DNA of 64,000 nt from an uncultured Thermoleophilia bacterium (GCA_963695395.1 CAVOGK010000026.1:60511-124510), one strand, 5' to 3'. Shown: positions 19,219 through 40,084, counted from the first letter of the stretch. Numbers and translations are program-made. The notes: generated by a model not told the origin, from the sequence alone.

Positions 19219-20649
19219 TCACGTGAGGACGACGCCGCAGACCTCCGCCAGAGCAGCCACTTGGGCATCGGACAACGCCGGTCTCCAGTCGGCGCGAGCC
19301 TGCAACATGGCTGTCACGCGCTCGCGGGCGGCGTCGACCTCGTCGCGGTCCTCCGCCTTCCAGGCGTCGTACGAAAGACGTGTCGAGACGACCGGCGCGA
19401 ACTGCTCGCCGGCGCGGATGCGCCGCGTGGTCTCCTTCTCGGCCAGGAAATGCCCGCCCGGACCGACCCTCTCGATCATCTCGCCGAGGATCTCCTCGTG
19501 CGAGATGGTCACGTCGGCCAGCAGCCGGCGGATGATGCCCACGATCTCGCAGTCGATGACGATCTGCGGCAGGTACAGCAGGTCGACAGAGTCGAGCATG
19601 CCGACGCCACCGCTGAGCACGTCGGCCCCGGCGGCGGCTGAGGTCAACCCCTTCAGGGCCTTGTCGTACCCAGCCTGGATGCCGGGGTACTTGGCCTCCG
19701 TGCCCAGGCCGGGCACCGCGACAGGCACGCCCAGGAAGTGCCCCATCTCGATGCTGGCGGCGGCCATGAGGTGAGATTCGGGCGCTCCGTACGCCACGTG
19801 TGCGGAGCGCATGTCCATGACGTTGGAGGAGGCGCCGAACACCAGGCGCGCGCCGGGGGCCATTGACTGCATCGCCGTGGCCACGCCGAGGAACTCGGCT
19901 ACCGCCTGCGTGACGCCGGCGGCGACGGTGATCGGCGTCGTCGCCCCGGACATCGGGATCGTGTAGACCTCGATCGGCACACCGTGCACGGCCATGGCGG
20001 CATGGAAGTCCAGCGCACCGCCGTCCACCTGCAGCGGGGAGGCCGCGGTGAGCAGCGTGCTGAACCGCGGTCGCTCCCTGAACGCTTCCTCGCCATCGGC
20101 GACGATGTCCCCGATGCGCAGCAGCGGTTCGACCTGCGACGGGCAATCGACGAAGGTGACGTGCTTGTCCGTGTTCGTGAGCATGGTGAAGTAGCCGGTG
20201 AGCTCGCGGACATCGAGAGGCACGTCGTTGGCGGTCACCGTCGTCCAGACCAGGTCGACCTCCGGCGAGGCGTCGAGCAGCGCCGTGGCCTTACGCAGGT
20301 CGTCGAGCGTCGAGAGCCGGCGTTCGCCGCTCTCGTCGTCCAGCACGAAGGCGCCGCAACCGGAGGAGCAGAAGTGCGAGCCCTCCCCTTCGGCGAGCAG
20401 AACGTCCTGCGCCGGCGTGGCGCCCGCCATGACGATCTCGCGCGGGCAGTGGTCGACGGCCTCCCGGACGAGGTCCGGTGGGAAGCGGACGATGCCGCTC
20501 TCGTGGTCGACCGCCGCGCCTTGCGCGGCGAGCGCGGCGAGTGCCCGGGAGCCGGCGAGACGCATGCCGACGCGCTCGAGCAGGGCCAGGGCCTCCCGGA
20601 CGATGAGGTCCTTCTCTTCCTGGCTCAGCCAGGTGGTCCGCTGTCGCAC
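19219..20649 (-). CDS. MttB-superfamily (trimethylamine methyltransferase family, COG5598) corrinoid-dependent methyltransferase, non-pyrrolysine paralog
   Basis: 476 aa. Family-typical segments PESHLMAAASIEMGHFLGVP, AGYDKALKGLTSAAAGADVLSGGVGMLDS. No internal stop. Confidence 0.8.
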   Translation of the reverse strand: MRQRTTWLSQEEKDLIVREALALLERVGMRLAGSRALAALAAQGAAVDHESGIVRFPPDLVREAVDHCPREIVMAGATPAQDVLLAEGEGSHFCSSGCGAFVLDDESGERRLSTLDDLRKATALLDASPEVDLVWTTVTANDVPLDVRELTGYFTMLTNTDKHVTFVDCPSQVEPLLRIGDIVADGEEAFRERPRFSTLLTAASPLQVDGGALDFHAAMAVHGVPIEVYTIPMSGATTPITVAAGVTQAVAEFLGVATAMQSMAPGARLVFGASSNVMDMRSAHVAYGAPESHLMAAASIEMGHFLGVPVAVPGLGTEAKYPGIQAGYDKALKGLTSAAAGADVLSGGVGMLDSVDLLYLPQIVIDCEIVGIIRRLLADVTISHEEILGEMIERVGPGGHFLAEKETTRRIRAGEQFAPVVSTRLSYDAWKAEDRDEVDAARERVTAMLQARADWRPALSDAQVAALAEVCGVVLT

Positions 20650-20829
20650 GGCGCTCCTCCGTTCGTGGCCGGATCAAGTCCCGCCGGCCATCAGTACCCA
20701 TGGCCCGTCCGACACGGCCATGCCCATACCGCGGACGGGAGGCAGCGCGCCGGACCAAGCGCCGCAGCGCCGGCGACGAGGACCAAGCGGCCACCGACCA
20801 ACCGCCCGGCCCGGCCGGACCGGCCCTGC

Positions 20830-22653
20830 TCAGACCGTCGGCGTGTCCGACAGCAGCTTCTTGGTGTAGTCGGCCTGCGGGTCGTCGAGGACGGCGTCCA
20901 CGGCGCCGTACTCCACAATACGCCCCTCGTTCATCACCGCGACCTCCTGGGAGATGCTGCGCACCAGGGCCAGGTTGTGGGTGACGAACAGCATCGAGAG
21001 GCCCATGTCGCGCTGCAGGCGCGGCGAGCAGTTCGATGATCGCCGCCTGCACGGAGACGTCGAGCCAGGAGGTCACCTCGTCGCAGATCAGCACCGTCGG
21101 CTCCGCCGCCAGACCGCGAGCGATGGCCACCCGCTGCCGCTCCCCGCCGGAGAGCTGGTCCGGGTAGCGGCTGAGCAGCGACGCGTCCAGGGCCACCTGC
21201 TCGAGCGCCTGCTCCATCCGCCCCTCCATCTCGCTGCGCGAGAGGTCGAAGAAGACCCGGAGCGGCTGCGAGAGGATCTGGCCGATCGTCTTGCGCGGGT
21301 TGAGCGAGCTGTAGGGGCTCTGGAAGATGTACTGGATCGCCTGCCGGGTCGCCCGCGGCCGGCCGCGGGCGTCGCGCGAGAGCGGCTTGCCCATGAACTC
21401 GATGTCGCCGACGATCTTGTGCTGATGCAGTCCGGCGATGCAGCGCGCCAGGGTCGTCTTGCCGGACCCGGACTCACCGACCAGGGAGAGGCAGCGCCGC
21501 TCGCTGAGATGAGTGGTGATGTCGTGCAGCGTCTCCTTGTGCTGGTAGAACGCCTTCACGTCGCGCACGCTGATGACCTGCTTCTCCTGGGTTCCCGGAG
21601 CAGAGAGCGACTTGTCGCGCAGCAAGAAGTCCCGCTCGGCCGCCGCGGCATTCACTTCCTTGTGGCGCCAGCAGCGCACGCGGTGCCCGGGGCTCACCTC
21701 CTCCACGGGGGGATACTCCTCCCCGCAGTGGTCGACCGCCCAATCGCAGCGCGGCGTGAAGGCACAGCCGCTGGGCCGCCTGCCCGGGCGGGGGGCCCAG
21801 CCCGGGATGCCGCGCAGGGCACGCTCGCCGGTGATATCGGGGATGGACGCGAGCAGCTTGCGCGTGTAGGGGTGCCGGCCGGACGCGAAGAGCTCGTCGC
21901 GGGTGCCGATCTCGACGACCCGGCCGGCGTACATCACGGCGATGCGGTCGGCGAGGTTGGAGACCACGGCGAGGTCGTGGGTGATGTAGAGCGCCGCGAC
22001 GCCGTACGACCTCGTGAGGTCGCGCACGGTGTCGAGCACGTGCGCCTGGGTGGTCACGTCGAGGGCGGTGGTCGGCTCGTCGAGGACGATGACCTTGGGC
22101 CGGTTGGCGAAGGCCATGGCGATGGCGACGCGCTGCTGCTGTCCGCCGGAGAGCTGGTGCGGATACCTGCGCAGGAACGCCCTGTCGGACGGCAGCAGGA
22201 CCTCGGCCATCATCTCGGCGCGGCGCGCCTCGCGATCTTCCGTCGACGAGCCGAAGCCGTGCACCTCGAGGATCTCCAGGAGCTGCGTGCCGATGCGCAG
22301 CGCCGGGTTGAGCGCCGCCGAGGAGTCCTGCGGCACGTAGCTGATCTGGCCGCCGCGGACGGCGCGCAGCGCCGCCGGGCCCATGGCAAGGACGTCCTCT
22401 CCGTCGATCTCCACCTGTCCGCCGGCGATCTTCGCGCCGCGGCGCTGGTAGTCGAGCAGGCTGGTCCCGACCGTGGTCTTGCCCGAGGCGGATTCGCCGA
22501 CCAGGCCCAGCACCTCACCGCGGTGGATCACCATCGAGACGTCGTCGTCGATGTCCACGCCCGAGGGATCGAAGACGATGCGCAGCCCCTCGACGCGCAG
22601 GACGACGTCAGGCTCCACGCTGGTCGCGGGACCGGCAGTGGTCGTGGACTCCA
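20830..22653 (-). CDS. Fused double ABC ATPase of an Opp/Dpp-type transporter (OppD-OppF fusion), one frameshift near 21020
   Basis: MESTTTAGP... Two Walker A sites ([18 protein letters not shown]) and two LSGG signatures. The true C-terminus ...[20 protein letters not shown] is in an alternate frame ending near 20830. The 1104-aa ORF is an artefact. Confidence 0.75.
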
Positions 22654-23574
22654 TCACCCCACCCCCGTGTCGCGTTCGATGCCGATCAGCGCGCGTCCCA
22701 GACCGTCGGCGATCAGGTTGGTGCCGATCGTCAGGATGCCGATCAGCAGCACCGGCACGAACACCGGCCACGGCTGGATGACGATGCCGATGCGGTTCTC
22801 GTTGATCATGAGGCCCCAGTCGGCCGCCGGTGGCTGCATGCCGAAGCCGAGGAACGACAGCGCCGCGATGAGGCCGATCGAGTACGTCAGGCGCAGGCCG
22901 AACTCGACCAGCAGCGGGCTGGTGATGCTCGGCATGATCTCGTTGAAGAGGATCTTCCAGCGCGCGATGCCGAACGCCTCGGCCGCGCGCACGAAGTCGC
23001 GCTGCGCGACCTCGAGCGTCGCGGAGCGCGCCACGCGCGCGATGCGCGGCGCGTGCCCGATGCCGACCATGAGCACGATCAGCCAGAGCCGCGGGCCGAG
23101 GATGGAGACGAAGAGCAGCGTGAGGACGATCTGCGGGAAGGCGAGCACGACGTCCAGGATGCGCATGACCGACTCGTCGACCCAGCGCCGCGCGTAGCCG
23201 GTGATGAGGCCCAGGGTGACGCCGAGGGAGAGGCCGATCACGGTGGCCGCGAGGGCGAGCAGGATGACCGTGCGCCCGCCGTAGAGCACGCGCGTGAGCA
23301 CGTCGTGGCCGATGTAGTCGCTGCCCAGCCACATCTTCGGGATGGCCGGTGGGGAGAAGGGCGGCGCCACGAACTCGGTCGGTGAGTACGGAGCGATCCA
23401 GGGGCCGACGACCGCGAGCAGCACGATGAAGCCGAAGATGCCGACGCCGATCTTGGTGCGCCCCATGCCCCAGGCCTCGCGAAGGGTCATCAGCCACTCG
23501 GAGTGGCGACGCTCGGGCAGGATGACGGCCGGCTCGGCCAGCTCGTCGGCGCTGATCATGATCTCGTCGCTCAT
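22654..23574 (-). CDS. oppC: Oligopeptide/dipeptide ABC transporter permease
   Basis: 306 aa with multiple TM segments. ATG/TGA abutment with the ATPase gene. Confidence 0.85.
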   Translation of the reverse strand: MSDEIMISADELAEPAVILPERRHSEWLMTLREAWGMGRTKIGVGIFGFIVLLAVVGPWIAPYSPTEFVAPPFSPPAIPKMWLGSDYIGHDVLTRVLYGGRTVILLALAATVIGLSLGVTLGLITGYARRWVDESVMRILDVVLAFPQIVLTLLFVSILGPRLWLIVLMVGIGHAPRIARVARSATLEVAQRDFVRAAEAFGIARWKILFNEIMPSITSPLLVEFGLRLTYSIGLIAALSFLGFGMQPPAADWGLMINENRIGIVIQPWPVFVPVLLIGILTIGTNLIADGLGRALIGIERDTGVG

Positions 23575-24536
23575 CGCAGGCCTGTCCGTAGTCGCGGGCT
23601 GACAAGGATGGTGAGGATGTCGGCCGTCAGGTTGGCCAACACGTACACGGCCGCGATGATCAGGCAGATGGCCTGCACCATGGGCATGTCGCGGTTGGCG
23701 ACGGCGTCGACCAGGGCCGAGCCGATGCCGGGAAAGGCGAAGAGGTACTCGACCACGACGACGCCCCCGGCCAGCCAGGCGAGGTTGAGCGCCGTGACCT
23801 GGAGCGCCGGGCCGAGGGCGTTCGGGAGCGCGTGCCGGTTGAGCACGAGGCGCTCGGGCAGCCCCTTGAGCCGCGCCATCATCACGTACTCGCTCTCGAG
23901 CACCTCGATGGTGCTGGCACGCAGGATGCGCGTGATGTACGGCGCCACCGCCAGCGTCAACGTGAGCGCGGGCAGGATGAACAGCTCGATTTGCTGATAG
24001 ATGGGAACGCCCGGGTCGACGCGCGAGACCGCAGGCAGCCAGTTGAAGACCTGGGTCGCGAACAGCAGGATCAGGACGATGCCGATGACGAACTCCGGCA
24101 GGGCGGCAAGCGAGAGGCTGCCGACAGTCACGGTGGTGTCGAACTTGCTGTCTCTTCGTAACGCGGTGAGGGAGCCCAGAAGCAGGGAGATGGGAATGCT
24201 GAGCAGGGCGGCAATCGCGACCAGTATGAAGGTGTTGATGACGCGCCGCGTGAGGAGCTCGGTGACCGGCTTGTCCTGCACGAGCGAGTTCCCGAGGTCG
24301 CCGGTGACGACGCCGCCGAGCCAGCTCAGGTACTGCTCGGCGATCGGCTTGTTCAGTCCGAGTTGCTCCCGCAGGGCCTCGTAGCGGGCCTTTTCCGCCG
24401 CTTCCTTGCCGAGGATCGCCCGGGCCGTGTCGCCGGGCAGGGCCTGGGTCGCGGCGAACACGACGACCGAGACCAGGAACAACGTGAGGACACCCAAGCC
24501 GATCCGGATCAGGATCAGCTTCAGGAGCGGTGGCAT
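23571..24536 (-). CDS. oppB: Oligopeptide/dipeptide ABC transporter permease
   Basis: 321 aa. MPPLLKLILIRIGLGVLTLFLV..., typical OppB/DppB. Confidence 0.85.
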   Translation of the reverse strand: MPPLLKLILIRIGLGVLTLFLVSVVVFAATQALPGDTARAILGKEAAEKARYEALREQLGLNKPIAEQYLSWLGGVVTGDLGNSLVQDKPVTELLTRRVINTFILVAIAALLSIPISLLLGSLTALRRDSKFDTTVTVGSLSLAALPEFVIGIVLILLFATQVFNWLPAVSRVDPGVPIYQQIELFILPALTLTLAVAPYITRILRASTIEVLESEYVMMARLKGLPERLVLNRHALPNALGPALQVTALNLAWLAGGVVVVEYLFAFPGIGSALVDAVANRDMPMVQAICLIIAAVYVLANLTADILTILVSPRLRTGLR

Positions 24537-24750
24537 CGGATCCGATCCCTTCTGTGAGTCATGCGAAGCATTCGGTCAAGTCTCCCGCGAGTCTAGGGGC
24601 AGAGTCGGAGGTGTCAAGGTCGCCACGGTCACGTCGACGACCGACGTCGAGGCGCGTGGTTCCTGCCTCCGGGCGGTCTCGACCGGACCGGCGGCGGGCG
24701 CCAAGGGAGAGTATGGCGTTCGCCGCCGGTCCTGACGATAGTGCCCTGTC

Positions 24751-26397
24751 TCAGACGAAGTAGACTTCCTTGAAGTACATCCGGCCGACAGGACCGCCGA
24801 GCTTGTCCAGCTTGTAGCCGGTGGTCGTCGTGGAGTAGGCGTCGACCTGGTTGCGCCACGACCAGACGATGTAGCCGCCCGTGTCGAACTCGATCTGCTG
24901 CGCTTGGCTGATGAGCGCGTTGCGCTGCGTCGTCGTCGACCGTCGTGAACGCCTCCTGGACGCAGCGACAGCCACTCGGCGTTCTCCCAGTGAGTCTCGT
25001 TGTAGGGCGCGTCGGGCATCGTGCCCTGGCTGGCCTGCGCGAGGTAGCCTCGCGTCGCCCAGAAGTCCTGGGCGAACGGCCACGACAGGTAGTCGTCGCC
25101 GTAGAAGACGCCCGCGTCGGTCTTCTTGATCTTGACGGTGACGCCGGCGGCCTTGGCCTGCTCGGCGAACACCTGCGCCGCCGCGACCTCGTCGCCGCCC
25201 AACGCGCCCTCGGAAGTGACGAGCTCGACCGTGAGGTTGTTGTCGTAGCCGGCCTGCTTGAGCAGCGACTTGGCCTGCTCGATGTCCTGCACGCGCTGCG
25301 GCGAGGTCGCGGCGTGCCGGCGTCGTACCGGGCGTACATGTCGTTGCCCACGGCGCCCGAGGCCGCTGTACGCCTGGTCGATCATCTGCTGGCGGTCGAC
25401 GATGAGCCGGAAGGCCTGACGCACGCGCACGTCGTCGAACGGCTTGACGTCGATGCGCATGGTGAAGGGACGCCACGCGCCGGTCTCGGCGTTGAGGAGC
25501 GCGAGGCCGTCCGTCGCCTCGATGACCTTGGCCTGGCTCTTCGGCAACTGCGACATCGCCTGGATCTGGCCGCTCTGCAGCGCGTTGATGCGCGCCGTGT
25601 CGTCGGCGAACTCGATCATGGTGAGGGTGTCGACGTACGGGGGCGTGTTCCAGTAGTCGGCGAACGCATCCCACTTGAACTGCTCGCCGGGCTTCATGTC
25701 GATCATCTTGAACGGGCCGCTGCCGATGGGGTTCTTCGGGTCGAAGCCCACCGGAACGATCTTGGCAGCTACGCTCAGCGAGATTCTCGGCCAGCAGCAC
25801 GTTCGCCGTCGAGAGGGTGATCTCGACCGTCTTGTCGTCGATCTTCTTGGTGCCGCCGGGAGCGACGCCGGTGAGAGCGGCGGCGCCGACCTTCGGGTCC
25901 TTCGGGTCGACGATGCGATCCAAGGAGAAGACGACGTCGTCGGCGGTGACGGGCTTACCGTCGTGCCACAGCACCCCGTCGCGCAGCTTGACCTGCCAGA
26001 CGGAACCGTCGGCGTTGGGCTCGATGGTCTCGGCCAGCAGGTTCTCCAACTGCATGTCGAAGGTCCAGCTGGTGAGACCCTCGTACATGATGTACTGGAT
26101 GGCGATGTCGGGCTCGTACGAGCCCAAGTGCGGATCGGCGGTGTCTTTGGCCGAGCCGCCGACGATGCCGACCATGAGGTCGCCGCCCTTGTTGGGCGTG
26201 CCCGCGGCGGACTCCGAGGCGGAGCTGCTCGTACTGTCGCTGCCGCACGCTGCCGCCAGCGGCCCGAGAGCCGTGACTCCTCCGAGCGCTGCCGCCCCCT
26301 TGAGCAGACTGCGGCGCGAGATGCGCTTGCCGTTGACGAGCTCCCCGAGCTCGCCCAACTCGAGCCCTGCTGGACTCCGCTTGTCCTTGTCAGTCAC
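24751..26397 (-). CDS. oppA: ABC transporter substrate-binding protein, family 5 (OppA/DppA/NikA-like)
   Basis: Tat/Sec-like RRSLLKGAAALGGVTALGPLAAACGS lipobox-like signal. SBP_bac_5 pattern. Start uncertain: GTG 26397 preferred, the ORF extends to 26607. Confidence 0.75.
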   Translation of the reverse strand: MTDKDKRSPAGLELGELGELVNGKRISRRSLLKGAAALGGVTALGPLAAACGSDSTSSSASESAAGTPNKGGDLMVGIVGGSAKDTADPHLGSYEPDIAIQYIMYEGLTSWTFDMQLENLLAETIEPNADGSVWQVKLRDGVLWHDGKPVTADDVVFSLDRIVDPKDPKVGAAALTGVAPGGTKKIDDKTVEITLSTANVLLAENLAERSCQDRSGGLRPEEPHRQRPVQDDRHEARRAVQVGCVRRLLEHAPVRRHPHHDRVRRRHGAHQRAAERPDPGDVAVAEEPGQGHRGDGRPRAPQRRDRRVASLHHAHRRQAVRRRARASGLPAHRRPPADDRPGVQRPRAPWATTCTPGTTPARRDLAAARAGHRAGQVAAQAGRLRQQPHGRARHFRGRVGRRRGRGGAGVRRAGQGRRRHRQDQEDRRGRLLRRRLPVVAVRPGLLGDARLPRAGQPGHDARRALQRDSLGERRVAVAASRRRSRRSTTTQRNALISQAQQIEFDTGGYIVWSWRNQVDAYSTTTTGYKLDKLGGPVGRMYFKEVYFV

Positions 26398-26757: not shown

Positions 26758-27345
26758 ATGAAACCGAAATCTGATAGTCATCACGAAAGTCAGCCCGTCG
26801 TTCGTCAGGGCTCTCTCCCCCATGGCACCATCGAGTTGGACGACGTCGATCGGCGCATCATGAAGCTGCTGCGCCACGACGCGCGCCTCAGCTACGCACA
26901 CGTCGCGCGCACGGTCGGCGTCTCCGAGCCCACCGTGCGCAAACGCATCGACCGCCTGGTGCACGCCGGCGCCATCATCAACGCGGCACGCATCAATCCG
27001 GCCCCCATCGGCTTCCCCATAGACGCCATGATCGGCATCAACGTGGTCCGCGGCAGGGTCAAAGAGGTCGGGCGCAACCTGGCCGAGATGGAGAACGTGG
27101 CCTACGTGGCCTACGTGGCCGGCAATTTCGACATCATCATCCAGGCCTACCTGCCCCACACTGAGGGGCTGTTCAAATTCCTGAACGAGGATCTCGAGAA
27201 GATCGAGGGCATCGCCAGCACGCAGACGTGGAACGTGCTGCGCACGGAGAAGTTCTTCTACAACTGGGAGGGCGAGGATATCGGCCTCGACACCTCACCG
27301 GCCGCGGACGAAACGAGCGCCGACGGACACGACGCGTCCTCCTGA
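26758..27345 (+). CDS. Lrp/AsnC-family transcriptional regulator
   Basis: HTH (IDRRIMKLLRHDARLSYAHVARTVGVSEPTVRKRIDRL) plus a RAM domain. Divergent from oppA1. Confidence 0.85.
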   Translation: MKPKSDSHHESQPVVRQGSLPHGTIELDDVDRRIMKLLRHDARLSYAHVARTVGVSEPTVRKRIDRLVHAGAIINAARINPAPIGFPIDAMIGINVVRGRVKEVGRNLAEMENVAYVAYVAGNFDIIIQAYLPHTEGLFKFLNEDLEKIEGIASTQTWNVLRTEKFFYNWEGEDIGLDTSPAADETSADGHDASS

Positions 27346-29740: not shown

Positions 29741-29860
29741 GGGAGCTGAGACCGCGCCGCGGGCGTCCGCGGGACGACCCGCGTGAGAGGTGCGCCGCCC
29801 GGGGTCACCGGCGGCCGGAGCAGCCCGGCTCGGCGACGCCGGCGAGCACGGGGGCCGGCC

Positions 29861-31079: not shown

Positions 31080-31186
31080 GGAAGTCGTCGTGCACGCTCC
31101 TGATCGGACGGCCGCGTCGGCCGACGCGGCCGCGACGCCGGGGAGGGCGGACGGCACGCGCGCCCTCCCCGGCGAGGTAGGCGCGC

Positions 31187-31915
31187 CTACGGACGCAGGC
31201 GCGCCTCGTACATCTTCTCGTAGTACGGCATGCACTGCTCGTACATCTCCTTGAGCTCCGGCACGTCGTCGACCGTGTAGCCGAAGTCCTCCATGTCTTT
31301 CTGGAATCCGGTGCTGTCGCCGGCGTCCAGGTGCCACATCTCCCAGTCCTTCCACTCCTGCTTGAACTCGGGCTTCCACGTGAGCGACTCGGGCAGGAAC
31401 GGGATGCCGACCTTCTCGCAGTACTGCTCGACCACAGACCCGGCGTCGATGAGCAGGTCCTCGGCGTCGACGACCGCCGGCACCTCACCGGTGATCTTCT
31501 TGGCCAGCTCGAACAGCTTGAACTGCGACTCGAAGCCGATCTCGCGGAGCGTCACCGTGGGGTCGAGCTTGTGATACGAGACCAGCGTGAGGGCGGGGTC
31601 GCGGATGATGAACGTGTTGGTGAACTTCTGCATGAAGTCCTCGTCCGCGTCGTCGCTGACGTAGTACGCCATGTCCTTGAAGAACACCGGCTTGTCCGCG
31701 CCGGCGGCCTCGATCATCTCGACGGTGCCCTCGAAGGTCTGGGGATGGCCCTCCTGCGGCTGCATCCCGACCGGCTCCTTCGCCTTGGCCTCGAGGTAGA
31801 AGTAGTACCCGAACGGCTCGTGGATGACCTTGAAGTCGCCGCGCTCGAACATCATGCGTTCGAATCCGGTCGAGATCGAGCGGGGGACGGACCAGAGGGG
31901 GACGATCTTGTTCAT
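31187..31915 (-). CDS. Sulfotransferase-family protein
   Basis: MNKIVPLWSVPRSISTGFERMM, a P-loop-like PAPS-binding motif. GGAGAG SD before the ATG at 31915. Confidence 0.55.
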   Translation of the reverse strand: MNKIVPLWSVPRSISTGFERMMFERGDFKVIHEPFGYYFYLEAKAKEPVGMQPQEGHPQTFEGTVEMIEAAGADKPVFFKDMAYYVSDDADEDFMQKFTNTFIIRDPALTLVSYHKLDPTVTLREIGFESQFKLFELAKKITGEVPAVVDAEDLLIDAGSVVEQYCEKVGIPFLPESLTWKPEFKQEWKDWEMWHLDAGDSTGFQKDMEDFGYTVDDVPELKEMYEQCMPYYEKMYEARLRP

Positions 31916-32411
31916 GCAATCTCTCCTCGACGCGTGCTGCAGGGCTGATGTGACGATCGGGACCGGCCAGCCGTGGCGACGGGCGACGCACCCGGGACGG
32001 CGACCATGCCTCCGACATGTCTGCAACGACGGTAACACTCGGGCGACGTCGTGGCAACACCAGGATGACGGAATCATAGCGAATCCTGCTGATTCTCAAC
32101 TGGTCGTGAATGCAAAGGGTCCGATTCTCTGTACTTACTGACTGTGGTCAGCATTATCGATATGAATCCCTGAAATCCCACCCGTTGTGCGTCAGGGCCA
32201 GCTCCCCAACGGGACACTGCCGCTCGGCGGCCTCGACCGCCACACGCGGCCTGCGTCGCCGGCGGTATGGAACGCGCCGCGCACGGAGGATCTCTTCTAC
32301 AATCGGCAGGGTGAGGGCGTAAGGGTGGCGCGGCCCGGCGAGGACGAGACCTCGCAGGAGCCGCGGCGGACCGGCAAAGCGAGACAGGCTACCTCGTCCG
32401 GGAGGACGCCG

Positions 32412-33413
32412 ATGTTCACAGTGATCCAGACCGACCGCGGCGCCTCGGATCGGGAGGTCGAAGACGGCGTCTTTCGCGGCTGCGGCCTCGACATCGACTT
32501 CAGGCGCTTCGAGCTCGAGAGCGAGAGTGATCTGATCGCCACCTGTGCGCAGGCCCACGCCCTCCTCCCGGCGTTCGCCCCGGTCACCGCGCGTGTCCTT
32601 GGCGAGCTTCCCGACTGCCGCATCGTCGCCTTCATGGCCACGGGCTACAACAGCGTCGACCTGGCGGCGGCCACAGAGCTCGGCATCGTCGTCACCAACG
32701 TGCCCGACTACTGCACCGCGGAAGTCGCCGACCACGCCCTCGGGTTCCTGCTCGATCTGGGGCGGAACATCACCCGGCTGCGCGACAGCGTCCTGGCAGG
32801 GCGGTGGGACTACGAAGCGTGCGGCAAGCCCGACCGCATCGGCGACCAGACGCTCGGCATCATCGGCCTGGGGCGCATCGGCAGCGCGGTCGCGCGACGG
32901 GCCCGCGGCTTCGGCCTCGCGGTGCTGGCCTCCGACCCCTACGTCGACGAGGCCGCGATGACGGGGCTCGGCGTGCAGAAGGCGGATCTCGATGAGGTCC
33001 TCGCCTGCGACTACGTCTCCCTCCACTGCGCCCTGACCGACGAGACGCAGTCGATCATCGACGCGGCGGCGCTCGCGCGGATGAGGCCGACGGCCTTCCT
33101 CATCAACACCGCCCGCGGGGGCTGCGTGGACACCGAGGCGCTCACCGTGGCGCTCGACGAGCGGCGCATCGCCGGTTCCGCGCTCGACGTGGTGAGCCCC
33201 GAGCCGCTTCCCGACGGCCATCCGCTGTACACCATGCCCAACGTCATCATCACCCCGCACACGGCCTTCATGTCGCGGGTCTCGGAGCGTGAGGCGCGCG
33301 AGAAGGCCTGCCTGGAGGTGGTGCGTGCGCTTCGCGGCGAAGTCCCCCGCAACGTGCGCAATCCCCAGGTGCTGGACCGGGACGGCCTCCGTCTCACCGC
33401 CTCCGCGGCATGA
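32412..33413 (+). CDS. D-isomer-specific 2-hydroxyacid dehydrogenase (PGDH/CtBP-like)
   Basis: GIIGLGRIGSAVARRARGFGL NAD-binding motif. Catalytic R/E/H pattern. Confidence 0.8.
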   Translation: MFTVIQTDRGASDREVEDGVFRGCGLDIDFRRFELESESDLIATCAQAHALLPAFAPVTARVLGELPDCRIVAFMATGYNSVDLAAATELGIVVTNVPDYCTAEVADHALGFLLDLGRNITRLRDSVLAGRWDYEACGKPDRIGDQTLGIIGLGRIGSAVARRARGFGLAVLASDPYVDEAAMTGLGVQKADLDEVLACDYVSLHCALTDETQSIIDAAALARMRPTAFLINTARGGCVDTEALTVALDERRIAGSALDVVSPEPLPDGHPLYTMPNVIITPHTAFMSRVSEREAREKACLEVVRALRGEVPRNVRNPQVLDRDGLRLTASAA

Positions 33414-33485
33414 GACCTTGACCACCCGGCGCCACACGCGATCTCTCCAGCTGCCTGGATCACCCCCAGGGACGGCGGTCAGCGG

Positions 33486-35414
33486 TCAGGTCGGCGAACG
33501 CCCCCCTGTCTCCGCCGCCAGACGTCGGGCGACGGCTACCGCGTCGCCGGCGCTCGAGCCGTGGCCGTCCGCGCCGATGTCACGGGCGAAGCGCGCGGTG
33601 ACGGGAGCCCCGCCGACCATGACGCGTACGCCGTCGCGCTCACCCGACGCGACCAGCGCGTCGATCACGAGCCCCATCTGCGGCATGGTCGTGGTCAGCA
33701 GGGCGCTGAGGCCGAGAAGCGACGCGCGATGCTCTCGAAGCGCGCGCACGAACTCCTCGACCGGCACGTCCGTCCCGAGGTCGACCACGTCGAACCCCAC
33801 GCCACGCAGCATGATGGCCACGAGGTTCTTGCCGATGTCGTGAAGGTCGCCCCTCACAGTCCCAAGGACGACGGTGTCCGCCGCCCGCGAGACGCGTCCC
33901 TCGTTCATGAGCGCCTCGCCGAGCGCGTCGACCCCCGCCTGCATCGCGCGCGCCGCCAGCAGCATCTCCGGTATGAACGCCTCGCCCGCGGCGAAGCGCG
34001 CGCCGACGACGTCCATCGCGTGGATGAGGCCGTCGTCGAGGATCGCCTGCGCCGGCTGGCCGGCCGAGAGCAGCCGCCGACACCCGTCGTCGACGCTTGC
34101 CTCATCCCCGGCGAGGACGGCGGCGGCCAGCGAGGTGAACCCCTCGGCGACGGGAGCCGCCGGCTGCATCGGCGCGCGCCCACCCTCGACGAGGATGTCG
34201 GGCACCGCGCCCATCGCCAGCGGCAGTCTGCCGTCTGTCTGGAAGAACTCGTGCACGCGGCGCAGGCGGTCGAAGTCGGCCGTCGGCGGGACGGCATCGG
34301 TGATGCCGGCGATGAAGCGACGGCCCGGAGCTACGGCAGCTTTCACGTAGCGCAGGTAGTCGTCCAGGTCGGCGTCCGACGTCTGCTCGGGAATGAGATA
34401 GTCGGCCGGGATGCCGCCGATGATGCACAGATCGCCGGCCCAGCGCTCGTAGTACTCACGGAGGGTCAGGGCGGTCATCGGATACGGACAGACGGATTCC
34501 GCGGCATCGACGCCCGACGTCCTGATGAGCTCCATGAGGCCCCGGTTCTCGCCGTCGCAGTGCGTCAGGAGAGGGATGCCGCGAGGCCGCAGCACATCCG
34601 CGGCACGACGCAGCCAGGGGAGGATCTGCTCCTCGAAGAACGGCGGATACGTGATCGTCTCGTCGAAGTTGCCGCCCCAGGTCACGCCGTCGACGTCGGC
34701 GGACTCGTAGAACTCGAGAAACTGCTCGTAGAGCGGAGCGATCGCGGCGGCGAACTCCTCCAGTTCCGCCCGCCGGTCGTTGTAGAGCAGGTAGAAGTCG
34801 GTGCCGGGGAAGAAATGCTTCTGGATGTGGTGCATCGGCGAGGCCGGCTCCCCGGCCGCCGAGATCACGGCGCCGTCCTCGCCGATGCTCTGCCTGACCC
34901 GGCGATAGGTGTCCGGGTCCGGCACGAGACGCAGCGACCGGAACAGGTCGGCGACGACCCGCCAATCGTCGAACTCCTTGATGAAGGGCTGCGTGACCCA
35001 GGGGTAGGTGATCCCATTGCGGAGCATCTCGGGCGTGTGACTCAGGACGGCGCCCGCGTCGCCGGAGTCCGTCTCCGCCCGCACGTGGAGGCGATCGCCG
35101 TCGCGGCGCCACGAGAAGCCTACGTCGTCACCGAGGGTCAGCCGATAGCCACACTCCGGGGGCGTGTAGAGACCGAGAGCACTGAGGGCCATGCCCTCGT
35201 CCGACGACGCGAGGTAGGCGAAGGTGCTCGTCAGCAGGTAGACGCCCCACCCCTCGGCGCGACAGATCTCCTCGATCGAGGCATCCTCGAGTCCGGGCGG
35301 CAGGGTCCCCGCGGCCGCACGGCCGGTGTGCCAGAGGTCCAGCCGCGGTGCGTACGGGAGCCTGTCGGGCAGCTCACCTCGGAGGGCCGCCAGCGCCTGT
35401 GTCCTGAACCCCAT
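33486..35414 (-). CDS. Two-domain methyltransferase: N-terminal URO-D/MtaA-like domain fused to a C-terminal cobalamin-binding domain (CmuA-like architecture)
   Basis: URO-D-like N-terminal ~400 aa. C-terminal DLHDIGKNLVAIMLRGVGFDVVDLG...GLSAL B12-binding DxHxxG/SxL/GG signature. GGAAGGGAGGG SD before the ATG at 35414. Confidence 0.75.
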   Translation of the reverse strand: MGFRTQALAALRGELPDRLPYAPRLDLWHTGRAAAGTLPPGLEDASIEEICRAEGWGVYLLTSTFAYLASSDEGMALSALGLYTPPECGYRLTLGDDVGFSWRRDGDRLHVRAETDSGDAGAVLSHTPEMLRNGITYPWVTQPFIKEFDDWRVVADLFRSLRLVPDPDTYRRVRQSIGEDGAVISAAGEPASPMHHIQKHFFPGTDFYLLYNDRRAELEEFAAAIAPLYEQFLEFYESADVDGVTWGGNFDETITYPPFFEEQILPWLRRAADVLRPRGIPLLTHCDGENRGLMELIRTSGVDAAESVCPYPMTALTLREYYERWAGDLCIIGGIPADYLIPEQTSDADLDDYLRYVKAAVAPGRRFIAGITDAVPPTADFDRLRRVHEFFQTDGRLPLAMGAVPDILVEGGRAPMQPAAPVAEGFTSLAAAVLAGDEASVDDGCRRLLSAGQPAQAILDDGLIHAMDVVGARFAAGEAFIPEMLLAARAMQAGVDALGEALMNEGRVSRAADTVVLGTVRGDLHDIGKNLVAIMLRGVGFDVVDLGTDVPVEEFVRALREHRASLLGLSALLTTTMPQMGLVIDALVASGERDGVRVMVGGAPVTARFARDIGADGHGSSAGDAVAVARRLAAETGGRSPT

Positions 35415-35530
35415 GGACGACCCTCCCTTCCAGTTCGTCGCGCCAGCCAGCACACCTGATCGATCGCGGTCGCGATGCTACGGGGCCGCAGCAGCCCGGC
35501 GATGCCCCCAGTGTCGCGCCGCGGCGACCC

Positions 35531-35761
35531 TCAGACAGGGTAGGCCTCGTACTCCAGACCGGCTCTGACCATGGCCAAGTAGTTCTCCGCCGCGACGCCC
35601 GTGTGGATCGAGGCCGTGTTCACCGCCTCCCGGCCGAGGATCGCCCGGGCCGTGTCTCCGGGCAGCGCCTGCGTCGCCGCGAAGACGACGACCGAGACCA
35701 GCAGCAGGGTGAGGATCCCCAGGCCGATGCGGACGAGGATCAACTCCAGGAGCGGCGGCAA
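35531..35761 (-). pseudogene. In-frame chimeric remnant: 5' ~50 codons of an oppB paralog (TTG start, SD retained) joined to the last ~26 codons of a URO-D-like methyltransferase gene
   Basis: (M)PPLLELILVRIGLGILTLLLVSVVVFAATQALPGDTARAILG matches oppB1 (~85% nt identity). The tail SIHTGVAAENYLAMVRAGLEYEAYPV matches the C-terminus of the URO-D gene at 58099-59175. Confidence 0.55.
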
Positions 35762-35888
35762 GGTACGCGCTCACCTCCATGCAAGGACTGTCGCGGGAAC
35801 GATGCCGAGCCCGAAGCGACCGGCGCGGCGGCGGGCGCCAGGGGGAGTACGGGCGCCCGCCGCCAGGTACTTTGCGCCGGCAGGGACG

Positions 35889-37502
35889 TCACACGAAGGA
35901 GACGTCCTTGAAGCCGAAGTTGCCAAGCGGGACGCCGAGCTTCGAGGTCTTGAGACCCGAGACCCTATCGGACCCGGCATCGACCTGATTGCGGAACGCC
36001 CAGATGATGTAGCCGCCCTCGTTGAACTCGATCTCCTGCGCCTGACCGATGAGCTCGTTGCGCGCCGCATCGTCAACCGTGCCGAAGGCCTCCTTCACGA
36101 TGGCAAGCCACTTGTCGTTCTTCCAGTGCGTCTCGTTGTAGGGAGCCCCGGGCATGGTGGCCTGGCCGGCCTGACTGAGGTAGTTGCGTGTGTACCAGAA
36201 GTCCTGCGCAAAGGGCCAGCTCAGGTACTCGTCCCCGTAGAAGACGCCCGAGTCGGTCTTCTTGACCTTCACGGTGACGCCGGCCGCCTTGGCCTGTTCG
36301 GCGAAGACCTGCGCCGCCGCGACTTCGTCGGCTCCAAGAGCACCGGCGGACGTGACCAGTTCAACCGTGAGGTTGTTGTCGTAGCCCGCCGCCTTGAGCA
36401 GTGACTTGGCCTGCTCGATGTCCTGCATACGCTGGGGCAGGTCGGGAGTGCCCGGGTCGAACGGCGCGTACATGTCGTTACCCACGGCGCCGAAGCCACT
36501 GTAGGCCTGGTCGATCATCTGCTGGCGGTCGACGATCATGCGGAACGCCTGCCGGACGCGAACGTCGCTGTACGGCTTGACGTCGATGCGCATGGTGAAC
36601 GGACGCCATGCGCCCGTCTCGGCGTTGAGCAACAGGAGGCCGGCGGTCGCCTCGATCACCTTCGACTGGCTCGTCGGCAGGTTCGATATGGCCTCCACCT
36701 CGCCGCTCTGCAGAGCATTGACGCGCGCTGTGTCGTCGGCGAACTCGATGATCGTGAGCTCATCCACCCATGGGCTCCCGTCCCAGTACTCCGCGAACGG
36801 GGCGAAGGTGAACCGCTCACCAGGCTTGAACCCTGTGAGCTTGAACGGGCCGCAGCCGATGGGGTTCTTCGGATCGAAGTCGACCGGCACGAGCTGACTG
36901 CCACGGAATGCGAGCCCCTCCGTGAGCAGCACGTTCGGCGGGTCCATGCGGAACTCGACCGTGAGGTCATCGATCTTGACGGTGCCGCCAGGATTAAGGC
37001 CGGCGAGCGACGACACGGCCGTCTTCGGATCCTCGGGATCGACGATGCGCTCGAACGTGTACACGACGTCGTCGGCGGTGACGGGCTTGCCGTCGTGCCA
37101 GGTGAGGCCCGACTTCAGGCGGCACGTCCAGACGGAGCCGTCGTCGTTGGGTGTGATCTCCTCGGCCAGATGGTTGACCGCAATGGCGTCCGTGTCGAAC
37201 GCCGTGAGGCCGTCGTACATCTGGTATTGGATGGCGATGTCCGGTTCATAGGACGCCCGGTGCGGGTCGGCTGTGTCCTTCGCGGAGCCGCCCACGATGC
37301 CCACCCGGAGAGAACCGCCCTTGCTCGCGCCGGCTGTGGGAGACGCCGAGGCGTCGCCGTCAGTCTCGCTGCCGCCGCAGGCAGACACGATCGGCCCAAG
37401 AGCCGCCATGCCGCCGAGAACCGCCGCCCCCTTGAAGAGACTCCGGCGCGACACGCGCTTGTTGGAGACCTCCCAGATGAAACCCATCTCGTCGCTACTC
37501 AT
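35889..37502 (-). CDS. ABC transporter substrate-binding protein, family 5 (paralog of oppA1)
   Basis: MSSDEMGFIWEVSNKRVSRRSLFKGAAVLGGMAALGPIVSACGG signal. Homologous to oppA1 throughout. Confidence 0.8.
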   Translation of the reverse strand: MSSDEMGFIWEVSNKRVSRRSLFKGAAVLGGMAALGPIVSACGGSETDGDASASPTAGASKGGSLRVGIVGGSAKDTADPHRASYEPDIAIQYQMYDGLTAFDTDAIAVNHLAEEITPNDDGSVWTCRLKSGLTWHDGKPVTADDVVYTFERIVDPEDPKTAVSSLAGLNPGGTVKIDDLTVEFRMDPPNVLLTEGLAFRGSQLVPVDFDPKNPIGCGPFKLTGFKPGERFTFAPFAEYWDGSPWVDELTIIEFADDTARVNALQSGEVEAISNLPTSQSKVIEATAGLLLLNAETGAWRPFTMRIDVKPYSDVRVRQAFRMIVDRQQMIDQAYSGFGAVGNDMYAPFDPGTPDLPQRMQDIEQAKSLLKAAGYDNNLTVELVTSAGALGADEVAAAQVFAEQAKAAGVTVKVKKTDSGVFYGDEYLSWPFAQDFWYTRNYLSQAGQATMPGAPYNETHWKNDKWLAIVKEAFGTVDDAARNELIGQAQEIEFNEGGYIIWAFRNQVDAGSDRVSGLKTSKLGVPLGNFGFKDVSFV

Positions 37503-37928: not shown

Positions 37929-38399
37929 GTGGACGTTCTCGACCGCCGCATCCTGATCGAACTGCAACGGGACGGCAGCCTCACCAATGCCCGCCTCGCC
38001 GAGATCGTCGGCCTCAGCCAGTCGGCGATGAGCGAGCGCGTGCGCCGACTCGAGGGCGAGGGCCACATCACCGGCTACCGGGCGCTGGTCAGCCCGGCCA
38101 GCCTGGGCATCGGCCTGCAGGCGTTCGTAGCCGCCGAGCTGGTGCATCACGAGACCGCCTGCATCGAGGGCTTCGAGCGCGGCGTCGCCGCCCTGCCCGA
38201 CGTGCGCGCCTGCTACCACGTGGCCGGACGCTTCGACTACCTGCTGCACATCGCCGTGCAGGACCTCGAACACCTCGGCCGCCTGATCAAGGACGACATC
38301 GCCGCCATCCCCGGCGTCGACAAGGTGGAGACCATGCTCGTGTACTCCGAGGTCAAGGCGGACACGGGCTGGCCGACGCTTGAAGGCGACGGAGGCTGA
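37929..38399 (+). CDS. Lrp/AsnC-family transcriptional regulator (paralog of the 56468-56971 gene)
   Basis: GTG start. (M)DVLDRRILIELQRDGSLTNARLAEIVGLSQSAMSERVRRLE. ~88% nt identity to lrp3. Confidence 0.85.
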   Translation: MDVLDRRILIELQRDGSLTNARLAEIVGLSQSAMSERVRRLEGEGHITGYRALVSPASLGIGLQAFVAAELVHHETACIEGFERGVAALPDVRACYHVAGRFDYLLHIAVQDLEHLGRLIKDDIAAIPGVDKVETMLVYSEVKADTGWPTLEGDGG

Positions 38400-38521: not shown

Positions 38522-39964
38522 TCATTGCTGCACGCCGCAGACCTCCGCGAGGGCGGCGAGCTGGTCAGATCCGAGCGCCGAGGCGCGGCCGTCGGCGGCG
38601 TCCGCCGCCCCAGTGGCGAGCACCTGATCCACGATCTCCCTGGCCACGTCCGTCTCGAGCACCCCCGCAGCCATCCACTGTTCGAAGGCCAGGCGACTGC
38701 CGATGACGGGGCTGAAGTGCTCGCCCGCCCGGGTACGCTCGCGCGTCACGCGCTCCTTGAGGTAGTTGCCGCCCGCGCCCAGGCGCGCGATGGCGTCGCT
38801 CATGACGCTCTCCACGCTGATATCGGCGCCCGCGACGATGTGCCGCACGAGCCGCGCGATGTCCGCGTCGATCGGCACCATCGGGAGGTGCCACACGCTC
38901 GACGAGGCCAGCGCCCCGAATCCCCCGCTGATGACATCCACCCCGGCGAGCGCCGCCGGCAGCACCTTGAGGCCCTTCTCGTACCCGGCCTGCACGCCGG
39001 GGTGCTTGGCGTCCGTCGAGAGGGCCGTGTTGTGGACGGGCAGACCGAGATGGTGTCCGATCTCGACCGAGGCGATGCCCATGATGGTGTTCTCCGGGCT
39101 GCCGAGGGACATCGACGAGGTGCGCATGTCGAGGACGCCGGGCCCGCAGCAGGCGAGCACCGCGGCCCCGGGGGCCGTGGCCTGGACGGCGGTGACCATG
39201 CCGAGGATCTCCGCCCACATCAACGCGAGCGTCCCCCCCACCGTGACCGGTGACGTGGCGCCGGCCATCGGCATGGTGTACGCCCAGACCGGCGCCCCCA
39301 TCGCTGCGTGCGCACAGGTCGCGTCGAGGAGCTCGCCGTTGACCTGCAGGGGAGCGCGGACGGCGCACAGGATAGCGATCCGCGGACGCCGCCTGAAGCC
39401 GTCCATGCCGTCCCCGAGGACGTCCATGATGCGCCGTACCGGCGCGACCTCGGTCGGGCAGTCGACGATCACGAATGGCTTCGAGGTCAGCGAGAGGTAT
39501 GCGTAGTACTCGGTCAGCTCGCGGCGTTCATCGGGCACGTCGTTCGCGGTCGCGAACGTCCACAGGAAGTCGATCTCGGGTGTCGCATCCATGACCGCGG
39601 TGCCCTCACGGATGTCCTGCAGCGTCGACTGCCGCACCTTGCCCGTGCGGAAATCCAACGTCTTGGCGTGGCAACCGGACGGATTGAAGAACGGTCCGGT
39701 GTGGCGGTCAAGGACCACGTCGCGTTCCGGCGTGGCTCCGGCCAACACGAGCCGGTCGGGCAACTGGGCGAGAGAGGCGCGCACGAGGTCCGGCGGCATG
39801 CGCACCATGCCGGACTCCCGGTCCACCGTCGCGCCGCGCTCCTCGAGAGCGTCGAGCGCGCGCGATCCCTTCATGCGCATGCCCTCCCGCTCGAGCACGC
39901 TGAGAGCGGACTCGACGACGAGGTCGCGCTCGGACGGGTCCAGGCACGTGAGACGAAGGTTCAT
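38522..39964 (-). CDS. MttB-superfamily corrinoid-dependent methyltransferase, non-pyrrolysine paralog 2
   Basis: Homologous to the 19219-20649 gene (LSLGSPENTIMGIASVEIGHHLGLPV, AGYEKGLKVLPAALAGVDVISGG). ATG at 39964 with AAAGGGG SD. Confidence 0.8.
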   Translation of the reverse strand: MNLRLTCLDPSERDLVVESALSVLEREGMRMKGSRALDALEERGATVDRESGMVRMPPDLVRASLAQLPDRLVLAGATPERDVVLDRHTGPFFNPSGCHAKTLDFRTGKVRQSTLQDIREGTAVMDATPEIDFLWTFATANDVPDERRELTEYYAYLSLTSKPFVIVDCPTEVAPVRRIMDVLGDGMDGFRRRPRIAILCAVRAPLQVNGELLDATCAHAAMGAPVWAYTMPMAGATSPVTVGGTLALMWAEILGMVTAVQATAPGAAVLACCGPGVLDMRTSSMSLGSPENTIMGIASVEIGHHLGLPVHNTALSTDAKHPGVQAGYEKGLKVLPAALAGVDVISGGFGALASSSVWHLPMVPIDADIARLVRHIVAGADISVESVMSDAIARLGAGGNYLKERVTRERTRAGEHFSPVIGSRLAFEQWMAAGVLETDVAREIVDQVLATGAADAADGRASALGSDQLAALAEVCGVQQ

Positions 39965-40084
39965 GCAACCCCTTTTCAGGACGCGCCGGCGGCGAGGGCC
40001 GTCGGCAGCGGTGTCCGTAGGTGACCTGCTCGTAGTCAAGCGCGAATGGTACACCCCTGACCGGCCTCGCGGATGCTGCGCGCT

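Follow-up and report, generated by a model that had tools for sequence, protein, structure and literature searches.

The closest described relatives of the genes treated here are non-pyrrolysine members of the MttB superfamily: the MtgB/MtgC/MtgA glycine betaine:tetrahydrofolate (or coenzyme M) methyltransferases of Desulfitobacterium hafniense and Methanolobus vulcani, MtgBCD of Ruegeria pomeroyi, and MtcB, MtyB, MtpB and MthB of Eubacterium limosum. The latter act on carnitine, gamma-butyrobetaine, proline betaine as well as phosphocholine, one quaternary amine each, in a family that diversifies by substrate. MtgB-type systems adjoin the BCCT carrier OpuD (PMC6855144, PMC12478193), and MtcB and MtyB are encoded beside MFS transporters and RocR-type regulators (PMC8604678). 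In MtgB, glycine betaine is bound by the residues Y97, R312, H348 and F356 (PMC13080624). Here we analysed a stretch of 64,000 nt from an uncultured Thermoleophilia bacterium (GCA_963695395.1, CAVOGK010000026.1:60511-124510), from here on called the window, in which two MttB-superfamily genes, mttB1 and mttB2, accompany the genes of an Opp-type ABC importer. To our knowledge, no characterised MttB system uses an Opp-type importer as its partner. The original prediction called this pairing unusual, which agrees with the BCCT or MFS carriers adjoining the characterised family members (PMC6855144, PMC8604678, PMC12478193). Literature searches returned no description of an MttB-Opp pairing and nothing specific on Thermoleophilia with pyrrolysine (Pyl) or MttB.

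We read the region, with moderate confidence, as a variable methylamine/quaternary-amine methyltransferase island, the oppA-oppB-oppC-oppDF-mttB1 core of which, placed under a divergent Lrp/AsnC regulator, would import and demethylate an N-methylated solute. The island lies upstream of a conserved aminotransferase-GAPDH-PGK anchor. In many lineages of Thermoleophilia the genes of the Opp importer and the MttB gene stay together, with the same orientation, as a conserved unit.

The importer operon and its methyltransferase genes

The window has a GC content of 69%, and its genes were called by third-position GC together with Pfam and NCBIfam profiles. All genes named in the original prediction were recovered in this way. 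On the minus strand, from high to low coordinates, the genes for an ADP-forming acyl-CoA synthetase, a GNAT-domain protein, MttB2 and OppA2 (with lrp2 on the plus strand) are followed by remnants of oppB and of a URO-D gene and by a URO-D + B12 fusion gene. Next come a 2-hydroxyacid dehydrogenase gene on the plus strand, genes for a sulfotransferase, an ATP sulfurylase and a SulP-STAS permease, a small open reading frame (ORF) and, on the plus strand, lrp1; then OppA1, OppB, OppC, OppDF, MttB1, a class-III transaminase, GAPDH and PGK.

The importer genes oppB (23571..24536; BPD_transp_1_N and BPD_transp_1), oppC (22654..23574; BPD_transp_1 and OppC_N, 99.7% identical to L003, an independent contig described below) and oppDF (20830..22654; a fused double ABC ATPase with two ABC_tran domains and oligo_HPY in Pfam) all precede mttB1 on the minus strand, as had been claimed for a full opp set at this first locus. 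A binding protein of family 5, a pair of BPD_transp_1 permeases and ATPases carrying oligo_HPY give the system the composition of a PepT-family importer. Both binding proteins are encoded on the minus strand as family-5 lipoproteins. OppA1 (24751..26397) carries a twin-arginine translocation (TAT) motif and a lipobox and has its nearest orthologs in L037 (90%) and L018 (87%). OppA2 (35889..37502; PF00496, 263 bits) is intact, is 87% identical to the L001 binding protein and is an orphan, its own permease genes being gone. It matches no OppA, DppA, MppA, NikA or GsiB equivalog in NCBIfam, all scores being far below cutoff (best Opp5A_nikA with 143 bits against 600; OppA 90 against 947; DppA 86 against 1005), and its nearest solved relatives among PDB sequences are distant binders of small ligands, namely Lmo0135, the opine binder AgaA, NikA and GsiB. 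Divergent from oppA1 and oppA2, respectively, are lrp1 (26758..27345) and lrp2 (37929..38399), both on the plus strand and both recognised by Pfam as Lrp/AsnC regulators with an HTH_AsnC-type domain and an AsnC_trans_reg ligand domain. Lrp1 is 90% identical to the regulator at the same position in L037.

The products of mttB1 (19219..20649, minus strand; 476 amino acids) and mttB2 (38522..39964, minus strand; 480 amino acids) are non-Pyl methyltransferases of the MttB superfamily (PF06253/COG5598) and share 48% identity. For mttB2, the end at 40054 that had been given is only that of the longest ORF; the presence of the gene stands. Both proteins are full-length by the 500-position PF06253 profile, which scores 251 bits with MttB1 (positions 31-489) and 213 bits with MttB2 (positions 30-478). 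On TIGR02369, the profile of Pyl-type trimethylamine (TMA) methyltransferases, they reach 332.5 and 298.6 bits and remain below the cutoff of 525. The column of Pyl334 is occupied by Gly316 in MttB1 and Ser316 in MttB2, and neither gene contains an in-frame stop. Against a structural-sequence comparison set of MtgB, MttB and 4yyc from PDB, the scores with MtgB and MttB are about equal (169/163 bits for MttB1, 150/152 bits for MttB2). None of the four MtgB residues Y97, R312, H348 and F356 is retained: C98, A311, G347 and V355 stand at these positions in MttB1 and Cys, His, Gly and Ser in MttB2, with Cys98 and Gly347 invariant among 24 members of the clade. By these signatures MttB1 and MttB2 are neither MtgB-type nor TMA (Pyl)-type. 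Because both lack the MtgB residues and pyrrolysine, the original prediction of a methylated substrate not recognised so far is a fair one; that this substrate is a methylated peptide or an amino-acid betaine is a guess.

A scan of a genome collection with MttB1 as the query gave only 3 close loci, and a profile scan of metagenome contigs was used instead, which yielded 80 further loci. Related loci are cited here by L numbers, and the counts for oppDF and the transaminase gene below use those with adequate flank. An exact-match search with the MttB1 of the window retrieved no recorded contig. The homologs of MttB1 and the near-identical contigs carry the label Thermoleophilia, for which reason a haloarchaeal origin, suspected at first because of the high GC content, the TAT signals and a GAPDH match of archaeal appearance, was dropped. 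The close relatives are products of long-read metagenome-assembled genome (MAG) projects. In 16 of the 17 loci (11/11 at an MttB1 identity of at least 70%, 5/6 at 59-69%) the gene directly upstream of the MttB1 ortholog, on the same strand, is oppDF, and a transaminase gene follows downstream in 15/15. The complete order of MttB2, a divergent Lrp, a family-5 binding protein, OppB, OppC, OppDF, MttB1 and the class-III aminotransferase recurs in L001/L011, L004-L006 and L013, and partly in L002, L012 and L014. In L001/L011, L004-L006 and L013 the GNAT gene stands before MttB2; where the locus reaches that far, the acyl-CoA synthetase gene precedes it and GAPDH-PGK stand after the aminotransferase. 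More distant MttB1 homologs with Opp genes nearby occur in L016, L048, L052 and L053. At MttB1 identities below 56%, Opp-like BCDF genes are found in 5 of the 10 long-flank loci, a divergent Lrp1-like regulator in 19 of 24 loci, and Pyl-type MtbB and MttB genes in 8 of the 10 long-flank loci.

Identity tables for L037-L043, L058, L022 and L013 show module shuffling: in some loci OppBCDF is 83-90% identical to the window and MttB1 57-61%, in others the reverse applies (MttB1 82%, Opp 68%). This suggests cassette-like replacement within a fixed operon frame.

The only additional pointer to the type of substrate comes from relatives, in which a gene for a CocE/NonD hydrolase (TIGR00976, 393 bits; Peptidase_S15 and PepX_C) often adjoins the MttB homolog at MttB1 identities of about 56-58% and does so as well in L002 (11469-13187), L015 (8229-9971) and L016 (8216-9997). 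In L016 it separates oppDF from the MttB gene; the window operon is without it. Further loci with CocE/NonD beside an MttB1 homolog are L034, L036, L041, L044-L048, L050-L052, L054 and L055. This adjacency suggests that the imported compound may require ester or amide cleavage.

A corrinoid domain is encoded in the window by the fusion gene (33486..35453, minus strand), which joins a URO-D/MtaA-fold domain (residues ~1-425) to an MttC/MtgC-type corrinoid domain (~437-650) with a DxHxxG motif. The C-terminal ~210 residues match PF02607 and PF02310 and contain the motif as DLHDIG; the top Foldseek match is MttC of the MttB-MttC complex (7xcn, 40% identity). The AlphaFold2 model (pLDDT 89, pTM 0.87) gives the N-domain a URO-D/MtaA fold, and the sequence of this domain is very divergent, with only 25 bits on Pfam URO-D. 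MtaA and CmuA carry the zinc motif H-x-C...C. The fusion has H298-C-D300-G-E-N...C322 instead and does not match TIGR01463 (MtaA/CmuA) at E <= 1e-5, so that the label CmuA-like that had been given to it is apt for architecture and fold and fails for profile membership and zinc motif. The family, ~640 amino acids long and widespread in metagenomes, keeps the H-C-D-G-E-N...C motif. In L008 and L009 the orthologous genes adjoin TAG-split Pyl-type MttB and MtbB genes, the one in L009 directly after a URO-D-family gene, and that of L010 stands alone; TAG-split MtbB genes were also seen in L016. The two informative relatives thus place the fusion by Pyl-type TMA/dimethylamine (DMA) methyltransferases and not, as at the second locus of the original prediction, by a non-Pyl MttB.

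A stand-alone URO-D-family gene (58099..59196, minus strand; PF01208, 119 bits) encodes an MtaA/MtbA-like protein and is a candidate for the second methyltransferase (MT2); its NCBIfam matches to MtaA/CmuA and to methylcobalamin:coenzyme M methyltransferase are all below cutoff, and its motif H-S-D-G-N...C is akin to that of the fusion. The third MttB paralog that had been counted is present and, unlike MttB1 and MttB2, is of the Pyl type. Use of Pyl is rare in Actinomycetota. This gene, mttB3 (63343..64000 and beyond the window end, minus strand), encodes a TMA methyltransferase with an in-frame TAG codon at 63829-63831 that falls exactly on the Pyl (X) of Methanosarcina barkeri MttB (7xcl) in the alignment, and a PYLIS_3 element (63732-63831; Rfam RF02510, 64.5 bits against a gathering score of 38) starts at this codon. 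PylRS genes have been found in two Actinobacteria genomes (PMC9630628), and expression of Pyl-type mttB/mtbB by Actinobacteriota MAGs was reported from metatranscriptomes (PMC10805028).

Among the window genes scanned or read, a set in which a few ORFs lack a Pfam match, there was no RamA, no MtrH and no pterin-binding gene, in line with the absence of RamA and MtrH claimed before. PYLIS was the sole Rfam match, the island contained no riboswitch, and no tRNA was found in the window. No intrinsic terminator was predicted inside the operon and the promoter scan gave weak promoter-like sites only, both results carrying little weight in an actinobacterium with 69% GC.

Possible function of the island

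In the proposed mechanism, OppA1 and probably also the orphan OppA2 would capture an N-methylated organic solute, which OppBC and OppDF would import. MttB1 and its paralog MttB2 would then move one methyl group from the solute to the Co(I) of a corrinoid protein, the carrier available in the window being the corrinoid domain at the C terminus of the URO-D + B12 fusion. A URO-D/MtaA-fold methyltransferase, either the N-domain of the fusion or the product of 58099-59196, may hand the methyl group to an acceptor that could be tetrahydrofolate or a thiol; RamA-type reductive reactivation and the downstream one-carbon enzymes would be encoded elsewhere. Gene content, family and fold assignments, the conserved gene order and the lack of the MtgB and Pyl signatures were read directly; that Opp carries the methyl donor, that the fusion is the cognate carrier and what the acceptor is, we infer.

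Several observations weigh against this reading. The identities of MttB1 and of the transporter are hardly correlated across loci (r = 0.19, n = 25), compared with r = 0.77 for binding protein and ATPase, and in L037 OppA1 is at 90% but MttB1 at 61%. The alleles of MttB1 and transporter assort independently, which gives no support for tight co-specialisation. A gap of 180 nt separates oppDF from mttB1 in the window. The cation-pi aromatics of MtgB, Y97 and F356, align with Cys and Val, and judging from these positions the substrate of MttB1 and MttB2 need not be a quaternary amine. No RamA or methyl-tetrahydrofolate enzyme is encoded nearby in the window. Relatives with the same operon have no corrinoid gene within 10 kb, and the usual partners of the fusion look like Pyl-type enzymes rather than non-Pyl MttB genes; for these two reasons the cognate corrinoid protein is uncertain. 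The class-III omega-transaminase encoded downstream of mttB1 (17772..19170, minus strand; Pfam; PRK07480 gives 448 bits with the L001 ortholog) is 85-93% identical among loci, and transaminase and GAPDH together stay at 85-96% whatever the divergence of MttB1, so that the aminotransferase resembles an anchor of the core genome, next to an island that varies, more than a pathway member. Finally, the contig is part of a long-read MAG with indel errors.

Beyond the import and demethylation of a methylated solute, the Opp importer, its fast-diversifying binding proteins and the MttB1/MttB2 clade might jointly catabolise methyl donors that are new to the MttB superfamily, a proposal that we regard as tentative. 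A possible group of donors are N-methylated (betaine-type) amino-acid conjugates, short peptides or esters, with CocE/NonD as their would-be trimming enzyme in related lineages. If true, Thermoleophilia of soils and sediments would harvest methyl groups from peptide-like compounds in a cobalamin-dependent manner, alongside Pyl-dependent use of TMA and DMA.

The importer might instead be an ordinary one for peptides or amino-acid derivatives that came to lie next to mttB1 through a shared recombination-prone region and has no substrate in common with it. We consider this unlikely. In its favour, the content of the island varies by lineage next to an anchor of 85-96% identity, the alleles of MttB1 assort independently of those of Opp, no genes vary more than those of the binding proteins (50-90% identity), Lrp/AsnC regulators are typical for amino-acid metabolism, and distant MttB1-like genes are often without an adjacent Opp system. 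Against it stands the co-directional oppDF directly upstream of mttB1 in 16 of 17 loci across 59-88% MttB1 identity despite the shuffling of alleles, which suggests that the adjacency itself is selected. The lack of an OppA, DppA, MppA, NikA or GsiB equivalog and the small ligands bound by the nearest solved relatives of OppA2 also speak against it.

A second possibility, which we regard as distinctly less probable, concerns the donor: MttB1 and MttB2 could take the methyl group from a tertiary or a secondary amine, or from a donor without nitrogen, and might for instance complement the Pyl-type TMA/DMA enzymes of the island. This would fit the replacement of the four MtgB residues by an invariant Cys, an invariant Gly, Val (MttB1) or Ser (MttB2), and one variable residue; characterised members with other substrates should, however, likewise deviate from MtgB in these residues. 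MttB1- and MttB2-like genes repeatedly cluster with Pyl-MttB and Pyl-MtbB, in L016, L044 and L050-L054 as well as in the majority of loci below 56% identity, an MttB2-like gene lies in the Pyl-type cluster of L009, and no MtmB was seen among the loci examined; the distant locus L069 has no corrinoid, RamA or MtmB gene. Against a non-quaternary donor stand the characterised non-Pyl members, each of which takes a quaternary amine (PMC13080624, PMC8604678), and the importer, since an ABC system with a family-5 binding protein is unlikely to serve small volatile methylamines.

Two probable front ends of one operon

The original prediction described two parallel loci of one architecture, with duplicated importers and Lrp regulators. 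Neither the parallel layout nor the duplication of the regulators was borne out. The two regulators share only 28% identity, and the sequences between lrp and oppA are unrelated in the two cases; the true recent paralog of Lrp2, with 89% identity, is Lrp3 (56519-56971) and not Lrp1. Lrp3 is encoded on the minus strand, adjoins panB and an FAA-hydrolase gene and is 89% identical to the L001 regulator. Repeated in the two halves are oppA (75.7% nucleotide identity) and the first 149 nt of oppB (83.2%, ungapped, by blastn). The second copy of the latter is an oppB' remnant of about the first 50 codons (35612..35763, minus strand; found by tblastn and by blastn to 24387-24535), and it meets a URO-D remnant directly upstream of the fusion gene, consisting of the last 29 codons of a second URO-D copy (35534..35620, minus strand; 69% identity to residues 333-361 of the L009 URO-D protein in tblastn). 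At this junction, around 35612-35620, codon ~50 of oppB abuts codon ~333 of the URO-D gene.

Both flanks correspond to arrangements in other genomes. L009 has the order URO-D, fusion, further genes, 2-hydroxyacid dehydrogenase, sulfotransferase, ATP sulfurylase, SulP, h133, EamA and Lrp1, and L037 continues from SulP, h133 and EamA over a divergent Lrp1 (90%), a binding protein (90% to OppA1), OppBCDF and MttB1 to the aminotransferase, GAPDH and PGK. The window is therefore collinear from 35620 to 15433 with one native allele, composed of L009 plus L037, and from 43731 to 35612 it matches the left half of an L001-type allele. The L001-type front end reads acyl-CoA synthetase-GNAT-MttB2-Lrp2-OppA2, that of the L009/L037 type URO-D-fusion...SulP-Lrp1-OppA1. 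Identities are mosaic: MttB2 is 95% identical to L001 and 73% to L004, MttB1 81% to L001 and 88% to L004. From these comparisons the two-locus layout appears to be one operon with two divergent allelic front ends joined by a single illegitimate junction. The simplest history would have a divergent allele acquired from a related lineage through one illegitimate join and one homologous crossover. Insertion of a 9-kb block into an ancestral single locus was considered and dropped, since L037 and L009 show that the side from the fusion through SulP, Lrp1, OppA1 and Opp to MttB1 is native. In L018 (91-3497) an OppA2-like gene (77%) and an OppA1-like gene (87%) lie in tandem before a single oppBCDF-mttB1 set, so that the OppA1 and OppA2 types are genuine paralogs able to share one importer.

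The quality of the assembly bears on these conclusions. Frame breaks were located by three-frame translation, tblastn with orthologs and alignment to orthologous DNA, and each one mapped at base level is a single-base insertion in GC-rich context. oppA1 has six +1 insertions, at 25763, 25362, 25313, 25303, 24966 and 24930, so that the gene had been correctly predicted at 24751-26397 but is not a single clean reading frame as it stands; removal of the six bases gives one open frame of 553 codons with the TAT motif and lipobox. Further +1 insertions affect oppDF (21021, placed by comparison with the L001 and L003 orthologs), GAPDH (17037) and the aminotransferase gene (18204), and a frame break lies near 30070 in the ATP sulfurylase gene. 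The breaks are concentrated at 16.7-26.4 kb, absent from 9.2-16.7 kb and found again in 61209-63305. L003, an independent NCBI MAG contig with 98.7% identity over 5.2 kb, differs by only two indels, located exactly at 24930 and 21021, where it lacks the insertions of the window; its OppDF is intact with 607 amino acids. In view of these two positions, the +1 insertions are probably consensus errors and the genes intact in the cell. That oppA1 and oppDF are pseudogenes is not the favoured reading, because all mapped lesions are +1, GAPDH is hit as well, two of the lesions are absent from L003 and removal restores the frame; an ORF at 20291-23605 was discarded as a run-on artefact. Long ORFs in high-GC long-read MAGs can mask such frame errors, which calls for caution in annotation.

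Given these errors, the two-locus layout could also be an assembly chimera of two co-occurring strains, an improbable reading to which we give little weight. The many +1 consensus errors at 16.7-26.4 kb and the mosaic identity of the two halves would fit it, and the independent assembly L003, covering only 19794-24960, ends short of the junction. However, the sequences that meet at the junction are non-homologous and offered the assembler no shared repeat, which makes a chimera unlikely; moreover, each flank is separately collinear with real arrangements in other genomes, and L018 independently has both binding-protein types in one operon.

Neighbouring genes and relation to known systems

A Fe-S + GNAT protein of 466 amino acids is encoded between the ADP-forming acyl-CoA synthetase gene and mttB2 (40085..41485, minus strand; Pfam, PDB sequence search, motifs and synteny). 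Its N-terminal part carries CxxCxxxCxxxCP and CxxCxxxCP, a double [4Fe-4S] arrangement like that of QueG and reductive dehalogenases, and it matches both reductive dehalogenase and epoxyqueuosine reductase weakly; the C-terminal GNAT domain is nearest to TacT/AtaT-type acetyltransferases. The gene is also upstream of mttB2 in L001 and L004/L017. The ADP-forming acyl-CoA synthetase (41548..43731, minus strand) combines CoA_binding_2, Succ_CoA_lig and ATP-grasp_5 (NCBIfam). Further genes on the minus strand at 47204-52682 encode an AMP-dependent ligase, a thiolase, an SDR and a beta-keto acid cleavage enzyme (BKACE, PF05853), and in L002 (1-3483) an orthologous thiolase and SDR directly abut MttB2. 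BKACE enzymes include a dehydrocarnitine-cleaving enzyme, and a beta-hydroxy quaternary amine is a possible substrate lead.

Between the fusion gene and lrp1 lie the SulP-STAS permease, ATP sulfurylase and Sulfotransfer_5 genes (27944..32077, minus strand; Pfam, with 79-90% identity to L009 proteins in tblastn) and a D-2-hydroxyacid dehydrogenase gene (32412..33413, plus strand; Pfam and NCBIfam, 91% identity to the L009 ortholog). The sulfur module, in which no APS kinase was seen, is also present in L009 (16346-20189), L014 (1-1706) and L037 (264-1976), and it is directly beside the MttB gene in L014. A sulfated compound, for example choline-O-sulfate, would be a possible substrate in view of this module. 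A secreted protein encoded on the plus strand at ~840-2190, frame-interrupted and with repeated NDVW(K/R)S.DG..W units that are Kelch/BNR-like by eye, appears unrelated to the island.

The MttB1/MttB2 clade is common in soil, sediment and peat metagenomes and has a distinctive active-site signature, and with two binding proteins and two methyltransferases it provides a testable lead to a new substrate. Each new substrate of the superfamily has shifted views on methylated-amine turnover in guts, oceans and wetlands; the island would link uncultured Thermoleophilia to a cycling of methylamines and methyl groups that competes with methylotrophic methanogens.

With the Opp, Dpp, Nik and Gsi importers the system has in common a binding protein of family 5, a pair of permeases, of which one contains OppC_N, and oligo_HPY ATPases; unlike them, it has fused ATPases and no characterised binding-protein equivalog, and its operon ends in a gene for a corrinoid-type methyltransferase. 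A NikABCDE-like importer of Ni/Co or of a metallophore, supplying cobalt for corrinoid cofactors, is very improbable: the best NCBIfam match of OppA2 is the NikA-type Opp5A, several NikA structures are among the PDB sequence matches and the neighbouring enzymes are B12-dependent, but these scores fall far short of the cutoff and do not exceed those of GsiB, DppA and AgaA, the regulator belongs to Lrp/AsnC and does not sense metals, one permease is served by two or three divergent paralogs of the binding protein (L018), and a CocE/NonD hydrolase between opp and the MttB homolog in relatives fits an organic substrate.

Like the MtgBCA and MtgBCD systems, the island pairs a non-Pyl PF06253 enzyme with neighbouring importer genes, and MttB1 and MttB2 are predicted to methylate an MtgC/MttC-type corrinoid protein. 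In contrast to both, the four MtgB residues are not conserved, a PepT/Opp-type ABC importer takes the place of OpuD, the candidate MT2 has a URO-D/MtaA fold with no pterin-binding MT2 nearby, and RamA is likewise missing from the neighbourhood. MtcB, MtyB, MtpB and MthB are also non-Pyl members of the superfamily, and from the described neighbours of MtcB and MtyB the island is set apart by its Opp-type ABC importer and Lrp/AsnC regulators. The Pyl-dependent MttB-MttC and MtbB-MtbC systems are represented by mttB3, and the corrinoid domain of the fusion is nearest to MttC; MttB1 and MttB2 differ from Pyl MttB by Gly or Ser at the Pyl position and by TIGR02369 scores below cutoff. CmuA and the MtsD/F/H-type fusions share with the fusion the order of URO-D/MtaA-fold domain, B12-binding_2 and B12-binding with DxHxxG. 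Unlike CmuA, the fusion has a divergent N-domain with the H-C-D-G-E-N...C motif and methylamine-type partners instead of cmuB and cmuC. The island is a conserved form of a known type of system, made up of parts that are all of known kinds, and its pairing of an Opp-type importer with MttB is undescribed in the literature searched.

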